Below are positions 2,571 through 19,566 of a DNA stretch of 25,626 nt, piece by piece. Origin of the DNA: Trypethelium eluteriae (lineage: Eukaryota); the NCBI GenBank assembly GCA_051942245.1, contig JAVECL010000030.1, positions 62,001-87,626 of the forward strand, written 5' to 3'. Position 1 is the stretch's first letter, and every line of letters starts with the position of its first letter. The translations under genes and the position numbers were made by a program. The notes under the pieces were generated by a model that saw nothing but the letters and a program-made list of their open reading frames with translations, had not been told where the DNA came from and ran no database searches.

Positions 2571-5500
2571 TCACACCACATTATACCTCCCACTCGCCGG
2601 CGCCCTCGCATCCGACGTCGCCGCCGCCTCAATCCCCTCCCGCAACAAGCGCATGAGATCGCGCATCGCCTGCGTAACCACCAACTCGGTATCGCCCTCG
2701 ACGAGGATATACAGCTTGGGCGCCTCGGTAGGGCCGGGGGTCTTGCCCGCGGCGTAGAAGTTGCCTTTGGTGGTGATGCTGGTGCCCGTGGCCTCGAGGA
2801 TCTTGGCGACGTTGGTGCGGTTCGTGACCGCCCAGCGCGCCTGTCGCGGGTGGTCGTTGATCTCGAGCGTCGCGTGGTATGCGCCTGCGTCTGGCCCTTT
2901 GTTGTCGACGGGTACGCCGGGTCGCAGCGTGCTGGACTGTGTGAGGCGTCCGCGGATGGCGGCCGCGGCTTGGTTGACGGCGGCGAGCTTGTCTGCGGCG
3001 CCGCTGCCGCTCGACGCAGGTGCGGTTTCGGTTTTGTGGACGACGATGTTTTGGTCGAGGTCGGGGACTGGGGTGCCGGGTTGTTTGGAAGAGGGTGTTG
3101 GCTCTGCCGGAGCGGCCCCGGATCCCTTGACGTTGATGCTGGGCTCTTCGGCGTCCTTGTCTTCCTTGTCCTCCTCCTCCGGCTCATCACCGGTCTTGTA
3201 TAGTTGGCGTTCACGAGTTCGAGCAGCATCGCGTTCCTGATCGAGTCTCTCTAGGCCTTTACCACCAAAGCCGAAACCTGCACTGTGCTCTTTACCCGCT
3301 TTCACTCTGACCAAAAAGTCATCCGCTAGCTTTTGCACGTCGTCTGGTACGTCTGCTCCGCTCTGCTTCATGGCTTTCACAATATCGACAGAGAATCTCT
3401 CCTGTTCCTGCGTAATGAAAGTGACAGCGGTGCCCTTATTGCCTGCTCTTCCAGTTCGTCCGCAACGATGCACATAGTCTTCCATATGGTTTGGCACATC
3501 GTAGTTGATGACGAGTTTCAATTGCTTCACGTCCAATCCTCGAGCGGCGACTGACGTCGCAACCATGACAGGAATGGCTCCAGACTTGAAGTCACCAATG
3601 GCGGAATCTCGATCAATCTGATCTTTACCACCATGAATCGAGTTACATGGATAACCCTTCTTCATGATTTCGGAGAGCAAGTGATCGGCGGTGTCTTGCC
3701 TCTCCACGAAAACCAGAGTCCGAGCGTCTTCATCTACGTCATTCAATTCACCTAACAGCTCCAGAGTCCGGTTAAACTTTTCTTTTTCCGGACGAATCTC
3801 AACGATTTGTTTAATATCAGATCCCACGACGCTTTTGCCACCACAAATGACCTCAGCCGTAGCGCCCTTACTCAGCGCCTTTTTGGCCAGACTCTCCATA
3901 TTCTTAGGAAATGTTGCGCTGAGCAGGATTGTCTGGCGGTCCGGTCGGATGTTATTCAGCAACTTCATGACCTGTGGCTCAAATCCCATGTCAAACATGC
4001 GATCAGCCTCGTCGAGAACCACATATGTAACGCGGCGCAAGTTTGTAACACGTCCAGAATTGGCAGCCAGAAGGTCGATAATGCGTCCAGGTGTAGCAAC
4101 AATAATTTCCGCGCCCTGTTTGAGCTCTGCAATTTGATCCTTGATCGGTGCGCCCCCGTAAGCACACACTGCTCTTAGACCAAGCGCTTTGACGAATGGC
4201 CGGCAATCCCGATGAATTTGCGTCGCCAGCTCTCTCGTAGGTGCCATTATCAATCCTATGGGGCCATCCAAGCCCTCCAAAGGTCTTTGGTCTCTGATGT
4301 GCCTCATTGCTGGCAGAATATAAGCCAATGTCTTGCCTGAACCGGTTTTCGCAACGCCAATTACATCAAACCCTGCCATTATAGCTGGTACCGCCTGAGA
4401 CTGGATAGGTGTAGGCGAGGTAAACCCCAATTTGTTGATTACCTCCAAGGTGACGGCTCCCAGCCCAAATTGGGAGAACTTAGTGACTGGCTTGGGCACG
4501 TTGACGCCTCTGACTTGGATTCCATCGAGTCTGAAACGTAAATTTCTGACATCATCGTCAGTCATCTCAGCAAGCTCGGCAGGTTCGGTGTAGAATTTCT
4601 TCCGGAAGGGCTCGTAGTTCATCTTGTCATGATTGACCGTCGGCATGTCTTTTTTCTTTTTCTTGGCAATGTTTGCCATGACATCATCCAACCCATCCGT
4701 GACCGCCTCCAGACCGTCTTCATCATCGTTGAAGAGGGCCTGAGGTTCCTGCTGCTTCGCTTTGGACTTCCCTCGCAAATCTCTAAGAGATTTGATGGGT
4801 TTTGGAGCATTTGACGTCTGCTCAAGGTCGTTCATGAATGCGTCCAGTGGATCTATTTCTTCATGGTCAACCGCAGAAGGCTCTTGAAATCCATTAGTCA
4901 TCTGAATGTCGCCGTTCGTGACTTTATTATCCACGGCTCCTTCTGCTCGATCAGTCGACGCATCAATCATACTCTGCTCCTGGAGGCGGTCTTCCCGCTT
5001 CTCGGCTGCCCTTCGAGCCGCAGCGACTTCCTCTTCTTCCGTACCGATTTCAGTCATGTCAACATCATCCTCGGCATCCGCGCCTTTATCTCCATCAGTC
5101 GATGCAAGAACCTCTTCTTGAATTTGGTTATCGTCGTCAGGAAGTATAGGCAGTGGCAGTTTTCCGAGTTTACGAGTGGACTCCTCGTCTTCCCCCATCT
5201 CCAGGGCGTTTTTACTTGATATTTTGTCGACATCATGGTGAGTTTTTCCACTAAACCCAAAGCCGCTGACATTTCCACGCGCCTTCAAAGGCTGTGCAGG
5301 AACCGTCTCATTCGCTTGTGGGACAGGATTCAGGCTCGTTGAACTGGAAGACTTGGCGGTCACTGGCACAGAAACATCACTGCCAAGGGTAGCTGAAGAT
5401 GACGCTTTGTCAATTGTCTTCTTACCGATTGCTTTGGGATCGAATTTCCCGGCATATGTTGCAGTTGTGTTGCTATCTGCTTGAGGACCGGGCGAGGGTG

Positions 5501-6263
5501 ACGTGGCGGTATCTGGACTGTTGGTAGCTTTCTTCTCCATCTCATCAAGAAGACTACGAGTTGTATTTGGAGTGCCTTCTACCCTTTTTGCCTGTTCTTC
5601 TTGCCTCTTTGCTTTCCAGGCATTAAGCTTGGCTTGACGCTGCTCTTGGAGCCTTTTCTGCTCATCGTCGTCTGACTTGAGGACAGGCGGCTTGCTGGTC
5701 TGGACACATGTCCTTTTAGCTCTGCTGGAAGAAGGAGGTTGACGATGACGTACTCCGCTATCCTTTACCCCGTTCACTTTCGATGGACCATCCCTAGAGT
5801 CATCTTTCCTTGCCTTTCGGCTCGTTTCCACGGAGTCCTCTCGGCGCCTCTTAGTTCGATCTCGAGAATCGTCACGTCTATCACGATAATCTCTGTCACG
5901 ACTACGATGTCGGCGATCCCTCAAGGGTGATCGTTCACGAGCTCGGTCACGTGAACGGTCCCTCCTGCTTGAACGATAGGCGTCGTCATCACGACGGCCG
6001 CCTCGCTTATCGTAGGAGCGATCCCGTCGACGATAGTCTTGGTCATGGTGTTTGCGCTGCAGAGAGGTTAATTCAATAGGTCGGATTGGAAGATGGCGGC
6101 GGGTGGAGTAGAGTCTTACGTCGCCACTTCGTGATCTGCTTCGATATCGATGGCCTCTGTCGAATTTTCTATCCCTGGCATATCGATCGTCCTCGCGACG
6201 GCTGCGCCGTGAGTAAGAGCTTTCTGTGGGTGATGGTGAGCGAGTGTCCCCTCGGCGAGCCAT
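2571..6263 (-). CDS. PRP5: Pre-mRNA-processing DEAD-box RNA helicase Prp5 (DDX46); exons 6263-6120, 6056-5754, 5699-2571 (about 1191 aa)
   Basis: RS/RD-rich N-terminus, DPLD motif ([10 protein letters not shown]), [31 protein letters not shown] and C-terminal LEIND..QARW region. Two in-frame introns (6119-6057 GTAAGA..CAG; 5753-5700 GTACGT..CAG) are hidden inside the 1259-aa ORF. Confidence 0.96.
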
Positions 6264-6663
6264 GGCGGCTCGAAGAGGCCAGTGGAAATTACCTTGCCAA
6301 CGTGGATAGGCAAGTAGCGACAAAAAGCACGACTGGTAAGCTGCAGTCAAATTGGACGGCTACTCCGCGTTGCCAAGTGAGTGGGGGACTGAGGATGATG
6401 AATGGCGGAAGAGGCGTGAGAGGTCAGAATCTTAAGCTCGCAGGTGGAGTGAAGCGCACGGATCAACGAAGCGCCGAAGTGAGTCAAACACGCTTGCCCG
6501 ATTTGGCACCTCGTCGAGCACCAGCCACGCGACAGCTCCAACCTCATATCCGTCGCATTACGGGGGACCGAGCGTTGCGTCCTGTGCTCTCCTCTGTTCT
6601 GCTCTGCTGTTTGTGGAGCAATTGCCTCGACTTGTCCGTCCACCCTCAATTCAGTCCGTCAGT

Positions 6664-14010: not shown

Positions 14011-15449
14011 ATGGCTTCAAGCACACTTTGCTTCAGGCAATTGACGCGGCGAGCCACCTGCCAGCCGTCTCCGCAACGGCAGTCACGTCGACTGGCTTCG
14101 GCATACGCTGGAACCACATTCAAGCTCAATACAGGGCACGAAATACCTGCTCTTGGTTTTGGCACATGGCAAGATAAGGATGCACAGGAGGCTGCAGTTA
14201 CCACCGCACTGAAGCATGGATACCGGCATATTGATACTGCGAGAGTGTAGGCCATCTTTACAAGAATACTACTTAGAAATACTTCCCAGAATGCTGAAGC
14301 AACCTGGACTATTATAGATACGGTACGGAGCCAGCAGTCGGTCAAGCAATCAAGAAATCTGGAGTGCCTCGTAGCGATCTCTTCATCACCACGAAATTGT
14401 GGAATAACAGCCATCACCCTGATGATGTTGCGAAAGCTTTAGATGCCTCTCTAGAAGACCTTGGCCTCGACTACATCGACCTCTATCTCATGCACTGGCC
14501 ATCCCCCTTCGCGCGCAGTGATTCACTCAATCCCAAGGATAAAAATGGCGAGAACATTCCGGGGGATACAGATTATGTTGATACTTATAAGGCAATGGAG
14601 AAATGCTTGGATTCAGGCAGGATCAAAGCTATTGGCGTTTCCAACTTCAGTAGAGGGGAGATGGAGAGATTACTCCGGGAGACTACCAAGGTAACTTCTA
14701 TCTTCCTCGCACGCGATTGCAACCACCAAGGCATGCAATAAGAAATGTCGGCGGGGCGGACAAGTCTCTTATGCTTTGCTGGGTGCCTCCTAGATGATGA
14801 AGCAGAAAAAGGGTATTTAAGAGCCTCCTACCGGCTCTTTCTCAATATCTTAATAAGTTCTTCATCTTATGTTTAGAGAAGAATCTGTTGAGAGAACCGC
14901 GTAATTCACAGAAGCATAGGAGGCCAAAAAATTAGCTGCTTCAAATACTGAAGCACCGACATTTCTTGTTACACTCCCTAGCGCAACATATCAGAAGCTG
15001 ACTCCAACTTATAGGTACCTGCGGCGCACCAGATAGAGCTACATCCCTATCTTCAACAACATTCCTTTACCGACTGGCACAGGAGTAAGGGAATTCACAT
15101 CACACAATATAGTCCATTCGGAAACCAGAACGAGGTATACAGTGCCGGGAAAGGGATGGATAAATTAATAGATGATGCTATACTGTCTGAGATAGGGCAG
15201 AAGCATGGTAAGAGTGGCGCACAGGTTGCACTCGCATGGGGCATTGCGAAAGGCCACTCGGTCATTCCCAAGAGCAAGACGGAGTCGCGAATCAATGCGA
15301 ATATCCAAGGGGACTTCAAACTGGATGCAGAAGACGTGAGGAGGATTGATGAGATGGATAGGAAACTACGCTTCAATGATCCTTCAAAGCGTTTTGGGTG
15401 GAACTTCTACTCTGATTTGGATGGGAAGAAATCAGAAAATCTACTATAG
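14011..15449 (+). CDS. Aldo-keto reductase (Gcy1/Ypr1-like); exons 14011-14246, 14318-14690, 15015-15449 (347 aa)
   Basis: [20 protein letters not shown] (catalytic D/Y), [38 protein letters not shown] and IPKS motifs. Confidence 0.95.
14794..14951 (+). ncRNA. Candidate orphan box C/D snoRNA or other structured RNA in the 324-nt intron 2 of the aldo-keto reductase
   Basis: ATGATGA at 14794-14800 and CTGA at 14948-14951, 50 nt before the branch A (15001). Perfect 12-bp flanking inverted repeat 14740-14751/14956-14967. No rRNA target recognised. Confidence 0.45.
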
Positions 15450-15737
15450 AATATGTCGTCTGACATTCTTCGAATTACCAATCGCTTTGATTTATGAGGC
15501 ATTCATTCAACCACTCAACCATGGGCGAGGGTGGGACAGGATTAGTGTTTGGAGGCCCGAGCTTCCGCACACACGTCAAGGCACATCCATTCCTTTTCTT
15601 CTGCCCATCTTCCATGATCATCCTCGTGAGGAGTCTGCACGGCTTCGCGCTTCACTGGGTGAGTGTGATCATGATATCTACGAGGGGCACAGTGGTAAGT
15701 CTCTTGTCTTAACCTTTGCGTCTCGCATGCTACTCAT

Positions 15738-15805
15738 AGGATGACCACAACAATCCAACTCCGAAAGCGTCATGCAGGAAACAAACATCTCTAGAATTAC
15801 TCTGA
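15738..15805 (+). ncRNA. Box C/D snoRNA with two guides (U45/SNORD45-like 18S target and SNORD69-like 25S target); coordinates box C to box D
   Basis: C AGGATGA 15738. Guide AACAATCCAAC 15749-15759 + D' CCGA pairs 25S GUUGGAUUGUU. Guide CTCTAGAATTAC 15789-15800 + D CTGA 15802 pairs 18S GUAAUUCUAGAG. Confidence 0.88.
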
Positions 15806-16084
15806 TCGCCATGCATGCTCAATCTTGCTCTTAATCTCTATTTTGCATTAGCATGTCGCTAATCGCAATTTTCTATCAGTAGCTTTGAAACGCATCGCCG
15901 TCAATGCTGTCCTTCCACTCAAATACATTCTCCACCGACCCCTTTAAGCTTGATGGTATGGACTGAAGGCTTTGATATGTGGCTCAAAGCCTCGTGATAG
16001 GACATGGAAGCATACAGGAGTGGCCTTGGAGCTTGGTGTATCTATGAAAGGTACGGAAATTTTTTTCTACCGATTTTGGTTATC

Positions 16085-16168
16085 ATGATGATCAATCGAC
16101 ATTGGAAAGGCATTCCTCGAACAGAACTTATATTGTTGAATTGTCTTACTAGTTTCAGCCTTGTCTGA
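16085..16168 (+). ncRNA. snR41: Box C/D snoRNA snR41 homologue (18S Gm1126)
   Basis: C ATGATGA 16085, D CTGA 16165. The 13-nt guide AGTTTCAGCCTTG (16151-16163) is complementary to 18S CAAGGCUGAAACU; D+5 falls on the G after CAA. D' CAGA at 16122 with guide AGGCATTCCTCG. Confidence 0.92.
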
Positions 16169-16286
16169 CCCCTTCCAATTTCGTCAAATTCCTTCATTGA
16201 TCTTCTGTTGATCCTGGTTCACTAACATGCCCCTTCGAACAGGTAAACCCTCGTGAACTTTCTTCTCCTCTCTTTCATCCTTTTAC

Positions 16287-16410
16287 ATGAAGAAGATTTG
16301 AACGTACGGGCGGACAGAACGTGCTCCTCACTCGTAGTCCACTACAAGCAGAGCGTACAACTTTGCGGGCCACCGAGTGGGGGGAAACTTGTTGAGGATA
16401 CGTCACCTGA
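16287..16410 (+). ncRNA. snR70: Box C/D snoRNA snR70 homologue (18S Cm1639)
   Basis: Variant C ATGAAGA 16287. Guide ACGGGCGG 16306-16313 + D' CAGA 16315 pairs 18S CCGCCCGU, with D'+5 on the C equivalent to E. coli C1402. C' TTGAGGA 16392, D CTGA 16407. It sits between snR41 and snR51, as in the yeast cluster. Confidence 0.85.
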
Positions 16411-16533
16411 TCGAAAGCACACCTGCTGGAGGAGATCTTGATTCTTATCCAAGGAAAATTTGCTGATATTGCTAGACAGGTATCTTGATCGTTCATTCCA
16501 TCCATGACCGCACGTTCTGTTCACCATCACTAC

Positions 16534-16688
16534 ATGATGATTCTTATTCACACTGTTTGAACGGATTGCCTTGTAACGAGGGCATGTCCGGAGATGATCT
16601 ATCAACACTGAAAATTCTGATTTAATGAGGCACGTTACCATCGTCTACTCGTACCAGACGTACGGACTAACTGATGACTTCAGCCTGA
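16534..16688 (+). ncRNA. snR51: Box C/D snoRNA snR51 homologue, interrupted by a nested intron (16630-16683), with two alternative D boxes
   Basis: C ATGATGA 16534. D' guide ATTCACACTG + TTGA (25S Um2729). ACACTGAAAAT + CTGA 16617 (25S Um2724). CTGATTTAATGAG|C + CTGA 16685 (18S Am100) forms only after removal of 16630-16683. Confidence 0.9.
16630..16683 (+). other. Nested 54-nt GC-AG spliceosomal intron inside snR51
   Basis: GAG|GCACGT donor, GACTAAC branch point 16665-16671, TTCAG acceptor. Length equals the commonest intron length in this window. Removal extends the 18S complementarity and restores exact D+5 spacing. Confidence 0.8.
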
Positions 16689-16871
16689 AATTAGATGGTT
16701 CCATTTTTACATGCGCATTCTGCTTCTCAGCTAATTTGTCTCTGAAACTCTACTAAATGGAAGTTCATAGGCTTACTGCCTTCGCCCACGCGTAGACACG
16801 GGCTTGATGCCCAGGTAGCTTCAGGTACGTATTATGACCACCGGACCGATTTCCTCGACGATTTACTTTAT

Positions 16872-16940
16872 GTGATGATTCCTCTATCTTAGCGGATTCC
16901 ACTGCAACATCATTGAAGATTTTAACAGACCCTTTTCTGA
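16872..16940 (+). ncRNA. Box C/D snoRNA with a guide to the 25S GTPase-associated region
   Basis: C GTGATGA 16872, C' TTGAAGA 16913, D CTGA 16937. The 13-nt CTTAGCGGATTCC (16888-16900) is complementary to 25S GGAAUCCGCUAAG and is followed by a degenerate D' (CTGC). Located in intron 16825-17010. Confidence 0.82.
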
Positions 16941-17094
16941 CCTTTTAGCCCTGGCCGTTGGAAAAGTGAAGATCACCGTCCTTGCACATTGGCTGATTTT
17001 TCGTGCCTAGGTTTAGAAGTAGTCACGTTTGGTCGGTACCATACCCTCTTGAAAAGGTAATGCTCCTTGCCCGGTCCATGATTTGAGCGGCATC

Positions 17095-17166
17095 ATGATG
17101 AATTCATAAATCGTTGTGTTCTTTCCGAATATTTTTGAAGAAACGCATATCATCTTGGAGAACTGA
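17095..17166 (+). ncRNA. Box C/D snoRNA with two guides (U55/SNORD55-like 25S target; 5.8S A43 target)
   Basis: C ATGATGA 17095, D' CCGA 17125, C' TTGAAGA 17135, D CTGA 17163. TCATCTTGGAGA (17150-17161) pairs 25S UCUCCAAGGUGA with 1 GU. TCGTTGTGTTCTT (17111-17123) pairs 5.8S AAGAACGCAGCGA with 2 GU. Confidence 0.86.
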
Positions 17167-19566
17167 CATCAGTCCCTTTCACCAAGCATATCAAAAGTCC
17201 AGCCGACTTTGGAGACGAGGTAGCTGATGACTAGTTCAGGCAAACGCGATCCAAATTGGGAGCGGCTTCTCTGGCAGGTCACTGTGTGGCAACTGTCTAG
17301 AACTCCGCAGAACGATTCGGAGATCTTATTGTGCACGAGGAGCATCAAGAGCTCCCCATTAGAGCCACGAAATCTGCAAGACAGATCTCTCTCACCCCAG
17401 ATGAGTCCAGTATTTCTTCGATACTGCCCAACAGAGCCCATCGCTGGCAGCAGGACGGCGGGCAGAAGATTGGGGTTTTCAAGGTCATCATTCTCATAGA
17501 GTCATAGACATGTACCAAAAAACTTCCCCCTATCCTTATGAATGACAAATTCGCAAATCGTCATGATTGGGGGGGAACTATACGTCATCTATTCGTAAAG
17601 CCAGTGAATACATCATCACACCTGCACCTCATTACAAAATTGTGGCTTTGAGGGGCGTATCGGGCGATCAGGATAGCGGAGGAAGACCTCAGGCGACCAT
17701 GCATTCACCCCTTGAAAATGTAGCCAGGGTCAGCCCGTGCCTCGTGGAAATTACCGATGGCCTCACCTCTCCATGGAATACATGGTGACATTTGTATGTA
17801 TCTGACGAAATGACGTTTCTCATGCATAGAAGTTTGGAGTCCATGAAAAAACAGGCACGCCATTTACGTAATCTTGAATATGCGTTGATCTTTTCTGAAA
17901 TTTTGAATGTAGTCCTGCCATAATCAAAGATCTCTACCTCATCTATGTGATGAACCTAGGAAGAAGCACGTCCTACCTACCCATCATCTCACCTTTCGCT
18001 GGCCGAGGATCGCATCGCGATTCCAAGCACGTGGATTTTAATACCTAAGCTCGCATACTCTTCCTACATACGGTCCAACTGCGGCGGTCCGATAAGGCGA
18101 GATAAATGGGACGTACCGGTAGCCGAGGGTCAAAATAATCTGCATCAGTTGCTGTCATGCTCATGCGACGGCTGACACGTGCTCTAAGATTAGAAAATAG
18201 AACGAAACGGAGCTGGCCGTACGCATGAGCATGCACTGCGGCCCGTCCGATAATCGGGAGCCAACGGCGTGCCCACAACATGGAGCTGCCCCTCCGAACA
18301 GCGCCGCAATCCGCAGGGCAAAGGACTCCCTTGCGAAGAAAATATTCGGAGCGGGGACAAACCTTTCAGACCGATCTTAGGAAAACAGCCGGCGGCGTCA
18401 GAAAATTTGGTAGGTCCGAGGTGACGTTGCTCTACGCTCCGGTGCTCCAACTGCATGACGACAGTCAACTACTTCGTACCGAAGACACTTGTCCACAGAA
18501 GGGAGTCAGCTTTTTCCGGAGCAGGATTACACAAGAGCTTGGATAGAAAGCCTGGCTCTTCCGCATTCCGAAAACCCTCTAATCATCCACTCTGTCACCC
18601 TGTATGGACTAGTGATCTCGCACAACGTGCGATGGTACGTAGCTGCTAGCGTCAATCGATGGCACTTCTGAGTTCTGATCGCCGCTCGCATCCTCAAAGC
18701 CAGGAGGACATGGCGTGCACCACTGGGCTGGAACATGAAGAAACGTCTCCGGAGCCAATCATGGGGCATGTAAGCGCAGCGAGCCAATTAGAGTTTGGAT
18801 AGTCAGGAACAAGAGCCGGCAGATGCACGCGTGAAAACAGGGCAGCCGGCCGGTCCTGAGTTCCGAGGCACGAATTAGCCCATCCGTCATGACACCAATC
18901 CAGGGGTATCCTTATGCCGGCCCATGCTCGGCTGGGGTGAGGCCCGGCAGAAGGCTCTAGTCCACTTGCGACGCAAGAAAAGGGGCACTCCGTAACTCGT
19001 CTAAATTGCCTGTGATTTCCGTGAAGCTTCTAATCAGGACCCCAGTAGGTACGGAGTACTTTCGGGGGTGATAACAAAGCCCCCCACAGCGAGCGTGGGA
19101 GTCCCAGAAGTGACTCCAACAAGGCTGCTGTTCATTCTCATGCGGCTTCTATTATTATGGTCTGACGGATGGGCCAACATGACATGCAGCATCGCAGACT
19201 TGCGGAAAGAAAACATGGTGAAGCAAGCCAGAATTTGGGGTACCAAGGCAGAGGGCTAAAAAGCAGAGGACCACCAACGCGACAAAACAAATCATAGGCG
19301 TGAAAGTGATTCGCGGGCGAGATGGCGGGCAGAGGGCGATGACGCCGGGGGCGGAGATGGTGACAATGACATTTGATCCGAATTGGGCTAGATGGGCAAG
19401 ATACTTAGCCTGGAAAAGCCGCCAATAAACTGGATAATCAGCATAATTTCCGTGGCATCGGTGGCATAGTGGTAGTGTGGAATCGTGGATGGTGTGCACG
19501 TTCAGAAGGGGCAGTGGTGGAACAGCGGGAGCCCGGAAGGCAACCTTCCTGTGCATCGCTCCTGCC

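Follow-up and report, generated by a model that had tools for sequence, protein, structure and literature searches.

How can a guide RNA carried in an intron be made when the guide RNA is itself interrupted by an intron? This question is raised by a locus of Trypethelium eluteriae (GenBank assembly GCA_051942245.1, contig JAVECL010000030.1), which we analyzed within a stretch of 25,626 nucleotides (nt), hereafter the window. There, the box C/D small nucleolar RNA (snoRNA) gene snR51 lies inside a host intron, and a second, nested intron lies between the D box and the guide for methylated A100 of 18S ribosomal RNA (rRNA), Am100. An earlier sequence-only reading of the window listed the motifs of this arrangement; from the donor GTATCT at 16480 to the TAG at 16768-16770, we found all of them exactly where it had placed them (Table 1). 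Comparison with related loci shows, at the level of the DNA, the predicted intron and its position, the D box that its removal would restore, the terminal stem, and three conserved guides. The best explanation of the locus as a whole, to which we give a probability of roughly 75%, is that the nested inner intron would be spliced first, yielding an snR51 RNA that guides Um2729 of 25S rRNA and Am100 of 18S rRNA and that carries an extra guide for Um2724 of 25S rRNA.

Based on its boxes and guides, the region 16530-16690 is identified as the snR51 orthologue of filamentous fungi, represented by Afu-277 in Aspergillus fumigatus and CD6 in Neurospora crassa. At relaxed thresholds, 16530-16636 aligns to the Rfam snR51 model (RF01214) with 32.9 bits, which is below the gathering score of 44. 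This alignment covers both the D' guide UAUUCACACUGU and CUGAUUUAAUGA, and the position of the yeast snR51 D box is taken in the window by GCACGU. The 3' end of the snR67 model (RF01177), ...ACACUGAAAAUUCUGA, aligns to 16604-16620, i.e. to a guide plus D box; the remainder of that model does not fit (22.4 bits, gathering score 55). Each of the three guides equals, or nearly equals, the guide string in the Rfam snR51 or snR67 consensus and stands in the right register, and the targets were read from these consensus strings. The window contains a single copy of the 25-nt double guide ACACTGAAAATTCTGATTTAATGAG, and none of 100 shuffles contained a match when three mismatches were allowed. The D' box is non-consensus; for snR51, van Nues et al. 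(2011) describe, in the part of that work on this snoRNA, a D' that is divergent yet active.

The inner intron, 16630-16683, has the donor consensus, CTRAY branch, and YAG acceptor of a U2-type GC-AG intron: its donor, GAG/GCACGT, carries A at +3, G at +5, and T at +6, and the branch A lies 13 nt before the intron end. When 16629 is joined to 16684, T16626 comes to lie five nt 5' of CTGA, the same register as the U of the yeast snR51 consensus. Only with 16630-16683 removed does box D lie near box C via a terminal stem, as in a box C/D snoRNA.

Table 1. Predicted features of the split snR51 gene and its host gene (positions in the window).
Feature	Position	Strand	Details
Host intron I	16051-16242		Acceptor abuts the donor of host intron II
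Afu_455 (snR41-type snoRNA)	16081-16170		Inside host intron I; Rfam 60.8 bits, above threshold
Host intron II	16243-16479		Acceptor abuts the donor of host intron III
Host intron III, the outer host intron ("intron III" of Luo et al., 2013)	16480-16770	+	Donor GTATCT; probable 3' end TAG 16768-16770, possibly AAG 16761-16763
5' arm, external terminal stem	16523-16528	+	ACCATC; 5 nt 5' of box C; pairs with 16694-16699
Box C	16534-16540	+	ATGATGA
D' guide for 25S Um2729	16545-16556	+	TATTCACACTGT; A16552 lies 5 nt 5' of D'; from the Rfam snR51 alignment
D' box, non-consensus	16557-16560	+	TTGA
C' box	16592-16597	+	AGATGA; aligned in relatives with (G)TGATGA / ATGAAC
Third guide, for 25S Um2724	16605-16616	+	ACACTGAAAATT, equal to the snR67 D guide; A16612 lies 5 nt 5' of the embedded CTGA
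Embedded CTGA	16617-16620	+	Opens the Am100 guide; may be an alternative D box, serving the Um2724 guide
18S Am100 guide, part 1	16617-16629	+	CTGATTTAATGAG; completed by C16684 after splicing; from the Rfam snR51 alignment
Inner nested intron ("intron B"), 54 nt	16630-16683	+	GC donor GCACGT, branch GACTAAC 16665-16671, acceptor CAG 16681-16683
Terminal D box	16685-16688	+	CTGA, preceded by C16684; adjoins the Am100 guide once 16630-16683 is removed
3' arm, external terminal stem	16694-16699	+	GATGGT; 5 nt 3' of the terminal D box
Candidate outer branch sites	16730-16735; 16751-16757	+	GCTAAT; TACTAAA
Afu_294	17091-17169		Rfam 70.9 bits, above threshold

We scanned metagenome contigs for a D' guide and an Am100 guide 35-65 nt apart, which gave at least 116 loci, or 117 matches with the window; all locus counts given here include the window and are among the matches listed. 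Four matches without a box C (L017, L029, L057, and L066) were discarded as chance matches. The 113 snoRNA-like matches comprise 94 with the intron layout (G/G[TC]NNNN ... NAG/N-C[TC]GA, with slashes at the splice sites), 16 that are intronless, in which the guide runs straight into the D box, and three (L011, L051, and L069) in which the contig ends just past a GT donor; no complete locus among them fell outside the intron and intronless classes. After removal of duplicates, 94 distinct sequences remained: 77 intron-bearing, 14 intronless, and 3 incomplete. The inner intron of the 77 is 46-68 nt long (median 54) and has a CTRAY branch in all but one (76/77). Its acceptors divide into 35 CAG, 21 TAG, and 21 AAG, and the D box is preceded by C (59 loci), G (12), A (five), or T (one). 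The absence of exceptions among complete loci and the tight intron lengths are both independent of the class pattern. As a layout predicted from DNA, the shared donor, branch, acceptor, and N-CTGA is far beyond chance.

The intronless relatives are informative about the product. At the junction, eight of the 14 read GAGCCTGA, which is the predicted spliced product, five read GACTCTGA, which is of the budding-yeast type, and one reads GAGACTGA. When one of them, L093 (on a contig of 55 kb), is set against its near relative L084, the intron seems to have been lost precisely, with nothing else missing. Rfam snR51 scores follow the same division, as intronless L093 (52.1 bits) and L065 (46.3 bits) pass, whereas intron-bearing L084 (38.6 bits) and L064 (33.7 bits) fail. 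Genomic snR51 thus falls below the Rfam threshold because the intron interrupts the gene. The comparison therefore bears out the earlier proposal that the snoRNA is split by a nested intron whose removal would re-create the Am100 guide beside a D box, inside an enclosing intron that ends downstream. That proposal also called for an alignment of orthologous loci; in the loci scanned here, the intron position, the branch, and the terminal D box are conserved, the C before this D box is found in 59 of the 77, and the GC donor in only two.

The two GC donors are those of the window (GCACGT) and of L064 (GCAAGC); the other 75 inner donors are GT. This rarity, and the score of the window below the Rfam snR51 threshold, would fit a history in which a T-to-C change at donor +2 disabled the inner intron in this fungus, leaving only a short Um2729/Um2724 RNA, with the Am100 guide, the downstream D box, and the stem as recent relics. 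We regard such a loss as quite improbable: GACTAAC, CAG, C+CTGA, and the 6-bp stem are all intact, the donor retains its +3, +5, and +6 bases, and the unrelated L064 also combines a GC donor with intact other parts. GC-AG introns are handled by the ordinary spliceosome. Most simply, the GC donor of the window is a tolerated rare variant, and not a tuned device kept by conservation.

The terminal stem offers a test of which RNA form has been under selection. We compared the 16 nt 5' of box C with the 22 nt 3' of the post-intron D box. The longest pairing run averaged 6.05 base pairs (bp) versus 4.72 bp in 909 cross-locus pairings (Mann-Whitney p = 2e-9, approximate), and the mean duplex energy was -8.4 versus -5.0 kcal/mol in the cross-locus controls. 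When the 5' flank of box C was instead paired with the start of the inner intron, the mean run was 4.35 bp, which is the control level. The pairing sequences differ by locus (13 bp in L004, 8 bp in L007, 7 bp in L002, and 6 bp in the window), and in the window ACCATC (16523-16528) faces GATGGT (16694-16699) with symmetric 5-nt spacers. Pairing across the post-intron D box supports selection on the spliced form of the RNA. A minimum-free-energy fold computed for the entire outer intron was uninformative (z = +1.06; 172 of 200 shuffles fold at least as well).

The enclosing intron is recognizable in the window and in relatives. The acceptor of the previous intron, CAG at 16477-16479, directly abuts the donor GTATCT at 16480, so that no exon lies between them. 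A YAG/GT junction is found 33-58 nt 5' of box C in 74 of the 77 intron-bearing relatives, and a CTRAY branch followed by AG lies 3' of the D box in 72. The distance from the end of the D box to this outer acceptor has a median of 75.5 nt and a range of 43-170 nt, with 71 of the 72 loci within 43-88 nt and one at 170 nt. The outer branch and AG 3' of the D box place the D box inside the outer intron in these 72 loci. Two exons of zero length are seen in the window, at 16242/16243 and 16479/16480, where the acceptor CAG is followed by the donors GTAAAC and GTATCT, respectively. Such exons suggest either recursive 5'-to-3' splicing or the use of one donor with several acceptors, as discussed by Luo et al. 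(2013; PMC3596301) where they treat the splicing of the cluster.

The nested-intron arrangement is already published and is not new. The passages of Luo et al. (2013, PLoS One) on this intron describe a nested "intron B" that, in snR51, separates box D from the Am100 antisense element and that arose in the ancestor of Euascomycetes, within cluster III, snR41-snR70-snR51. In the same account, all Euascomycetes lack the two interior exons, giving an intron-intron-intron structure, to which U45- and U55-type introns are added. Our window shares with this cluster the site of intron B, the order of snoRNAs, the abutting introns without exons, and the added snoRNA introns; it differs in its inner donor, GC instead of GT. 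In those passages on intron B, the Um2724 guide, the embedded CTGA, and the terminal stem are not discussed.

Cloned RNAs from two other fungi bear on whether the spliced form exists. In the section of Jochl et al. (2008; PMC2377427) that lists its clones, Afu-277 was recovered four times as a 100-nt RNA, is placed between Afu-455 and Afu-294, and has predicted targets Um2706 in 26S rRNA, Am97 in 18S rRNA, and Cm47 in 5.8S rRNA. Since Snoscan would call Am97 only with the guide beside a D box, the Afu-277 complementary DNA (cDNA) was probably of the spliced form. In the snoRNA list of Liu et al. (2009; PMC2780460), N. crassa CD6 is the snR51 homologue, a 76-nt "exon-encoded" RNA with 26S-Um2687 as its only target, via D', and the list assigns no N. 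crassa snoRNA to the Am100-equivalent site. Per Additional file 1 of that paper, the CD6 clone ends at ...CUGAUUUAAUGAG and the genome then reads "gua". The genomic donor thus comes right after ...AAUGAG, the same guide-then-donor layout as in the window. As described in these parts of the two papers, the Afu-277 and CD6 genes have in common with the window the position in the cluster, between Afu-455 and Afu-294, the D' guide, and the Am100 guide. They differ from it in the third guide: in N. crassa the Um2724 guide is in CD49 rather than CD6, and for A. fumigatus the snoRNA assigned to Um2701 is Afu-380. A split gene is not reported in the sections of either paper that deal with these RNAs.

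Taken together, these observations suggest the following route to the snoRNA. snR51 lies in host intron III, the last of three abutting introns in a non-coding host gene for several snoRNAs, and the inner intron would leave while the outer intron (16480 to ~16770) remains. This splicing would link ...TTTAATGAG to C-CTGA, the two arms of the terminal stem (Table 1) would pair, and core proteins would assemble. The excised outer intron would then be shortened by exonucleases until a snoRNA of ~105-110 nt is left, which would guide 25S Um2729 via D' and 18S Am100 via D. A snoRNA split inside a host intron forces an order on the two nested splicing events, and published splicing data are relevant to that order. 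According to the results of Luo et al. (2013) on 42 expressed sequence tags (ESTs), the introns of the cluster are removed 5' to 3', or the first donor alone is used. With 5'-to-3' removal, use of the donor at 16480 would be delayed, which would favor prior removal of the 54-nt inner intron. Our literature search found no paper on RiboMeth-seq in filamentous fungi.

Several points weigh against this route. The terminal D box reads CTGA in 76 of the 77 intron-bearing loci and CCGA in one, a count that is partly produced by construction, as the class pattern already demands NAG-N-C[TC]GA. The metagenome loci carry no taxonomy and are mutually related, and the p-values given here are approximate for that reason. 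The Afu-277 and CD6 clones are read as spliced RNAs, which we infer from their reported targets and ends. Both donors are weak, the inner one being GC and the outer one, GTATCT, lacking a G at +5. Finally, a stem for the short form, between the 5' flank of box C and the fixed TTTAATGAG, gave no signal: runs averaged 4.15 bp where the third guide is present and 4.57 bp where it is absent.

Of the 77 intron-bearing loci, 40 have the third guide, (A/G)CACTGAAAA(T/A)T, immediately 5' of the embedded CTGA, as do 1 of the 14 intronless and 1 of the 3 incomplete. In those 40 it is invariant, while the preceding 4 nt show at least 15 combinations, and it equals both the snR67 D guide in Rfam and the guide of N. 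crassa CD49. As the sequence-only reading had it, one locus holds three guides (Um2729, Um2724, and Am100), and all three are conserved in relatives. We consider this conservation good evidence that the third guide would be functional in the lineages carrying it. By the rules of box C/D guides, a functional third guide implies that the embedded CTGA acts as the D box in some particles. What is unpublished is that the CUGA within one guide probably acts as D box for another, possibly competing kinetically with splicing; in our literature search, no paper was found that links the nested intron with a Um2724 guide or that describes an embedded CUGA as an alternative D box.

The null result for a short-form stem, and the N. 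crassa clone that runs 9 nt past the embedded CTGA (Liu et al., 2009, Additional file 1), would be consistent with the long spliced snoRNA alone being functional and with the Um2724-type stretch being inactive, ancestral, or used for a role other than guiding. This seems to us an improbable account of the stretch, 11-12 nt of which are invariant across 40 loci in 23 groups at 90% identity as their neighbors vary, and which equals the snR67 D guide and the CD49 guide, always directly before CTGA. In addition, the Um2724 guide changes snoRNA family between lineages. Canzler et al. (2018; PMC5824354), in their survey of this site, predict 25S-2724 as the D target of snR51 in Onygenales and part of Dothideomycetes, and report guidance by snR67 in Saccharomycotina and by snR54 in Sordariales, which fits snR51 as the carrier here. 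We also considered the third guide as a source of extra base-pairing in the sense of van Nues et al. (2011). This was rejected, as its target overlaps the rRNA bases of the D' guide and simultaneous pairing is not possible.

One relative shows the three guides without the inner intron. At L065 (771-989, minus strand), snR51 lies outside the cluster, alone in an ordinary intron of another transcript. The inner intron has been lost, the terminal stem is 7-9 bp, and the Um2724-type and Am100 guides stand before two successive CTGA boxes. The three contiguous guides are thus kept without an intron, and the third guide is independent of a splicing choice. We also note that 39 of the 40 third-guide loci, versus 20 of the 37 without the third guide, have a C immediately 5' of the D box, possibly by shared ancestry.

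The sequence-only reading also proposed a splicing switch, in which the donors at 16480 and the weak GC at 16630 compete for the acceptor at 16683, yielding either a short Um2724/Um2729 RNA or a long Am100/Um2729 RNA and so balancing methylation between the subunits. Every signal it invokes is present at its stated position, and the three guides are conserved. The inner splice sites also seem weaker when the third guide is there. Of the 40 third-guide loci, 19 have an AAG acceptor, versus 2 of the 37 others, and the figures are 10 of 23 versus 2 of 24 when counted by groups of 90% identity (Fisher p = 0.008). Consensus donors are fewer with the third guide (23/40 versus 30/37, p = 0.03 by locus), and both GC donors are in third-guide loci. 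The donor contrast is, however, not significant by group (13/23 versus 19/24, p = 0.12), and the association is confounded by shared ancestry, which could yield all of the splice-site contrasts. Further, 75 of the 77 inner donors are ordinary GT, the intronless L065 holds all three guides, and the cluster ESTs presented by Luo et al. (2013) show no use of a downstream donor before removal of the upstream intron. We therefore consider the switch unlikely. A choice of D box between the two CUGA boxes would explain the arrangement at least as well, and more simply. A box-C-like TGATG inside the inner intron (16672-16677 in the window) was also examined; it occurs in 6 of the 77 loci versus 2.6 expected from shuffles, which is unconvincing.

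The Um2724 guide would act only if box C at times paired with the embedded CTGA, which would produce a second particle, probably a shorter one. That such a particle exists, its size, and any control of the ratio are conjectural. It is conceivable, though doubtful, that in about half of the sampled filamentous-ascomycete lineages one snR51 gives two mutually exclusive particles: in one, box C would pair with the embedded CUGA and the Um2724 guide would be active, and in the other, box C would pair with the D box supplied by nested-intron splicing and the Am100 guide would be active. The nested intron would then be a delay that sets their ratio, and weak inner splice sites, such as the AAG acceptors and the two GC donors, would be how evolution tuned methylation of the large versus the small subunit.

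Overall, the locus is real and mostly known, with a modest unpublished residue. It represents a rare case in which an intron-carried guide RNA itself needs splicing before it would function. The interrupted gene explains why snR51 is under-called in filamentous fungi by Rfam and homology pipelines, why N. crassa CD6 is listed as exon-encoded and single-target, and why the N. crassa 18S Am100-equivalent had no assigned guide; these annotation points follow from work already in print. If the embedded CUGA is indeed a second D box, a single gene would cover three rRNA sites by way of two alternative particles, and if that is true, it would be a new way of coupling splicing kinetics to rRNA modification.

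Comparison with other systems shows how the pieces are combined. The window has in common with Saccharomyces cerevisiae snR51 (RF01214) the order of boxes, the D' guide, and the register of the Am100 guide relative to box D. The yeast gene differs in having no intron and in being produced from an unspliced polycistron, and it has an A-rich spacer at the place of the Um2724 guide. With S. cerevisiae snR67 (RF01177), a different gene, the window shares the guide and D box string at 16604-16620.

Spliceosomal introns reportedly also occur in fungal U3 snoRNA genes, in which the mature snoRNA is likewise made by splicing. Fungal U3 is independently transcribed, and unlike in the window, its intron is neither nested in a host intron nor placed between a guide and a box. 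Fungal stwintrons are introns within introns in which the inner one is removed first. There, it is a splice signal of the outer intron that the inner one interrupts, whereas here it is the snoRNA that the outer intron carries.

The host gene around snR51 occupies ~15.7-17.2 kb of the window and is non-coding, with five or six intronic box C/D snoRNAs in a row. When 15500-17600 of the window was compared by blastn with all scanned loci, the snoRNA bodies aligned and the introns were otherwise dissimilar; the aligned blocks were 15745-15807, 16083-16171, 16285-16412, 16530-16636, and 17096-17170, with 16886-16919 aligned in few loci.

Three of these blocks mark further likely or candidate snoRNAs. 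In intron II, 16285-16412 is probably a box C/D snoRNA of snR70 type, with CTGA as its D box (16407-16410) and a variant, ATGAAGA (16287-16293), as its box C. It is kept in many relatives at 70-91% identity and had no Rfam match with E up to 10 allowed; the name snR70 is one that we presume from the cluster order of Luo et al. and from the guide. At 15734-15808, within an intron at 15695-15879, a box C/D snoRNA with box C AGGATGA (15738-15744) and a D box at 15802-15805 resembles N. crassa CD17 (U45 type) when compared by eye with Additional file 1 of Liu et al. (2009); it is kept in relatives and had no Rfam match. A further candidate box C/D snoRNA at 16872-16940 has GTGATGA at 16872-16878 and CTGA at 16937-16940, lies in an intron at 16825-16948, and also had no Rfam match. 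It is kept in few loci (L052 and L058, 88% over 16886-16919). Its D box, CTGAC, may double as the branch site of that intron, and a TAG ends 8 nt further on.

Two protein-coding genes were noted elsewhere in the window. The minus strand at 2571-6350 encodes a long DEAD-box RNA helicase that includes a KH_12 domain (protein atlas score 0.99), and by the look of its sequence, an aldo-keto-reductase-type gene occupies 14500-15450, just 5' of the snoRNA host gene.

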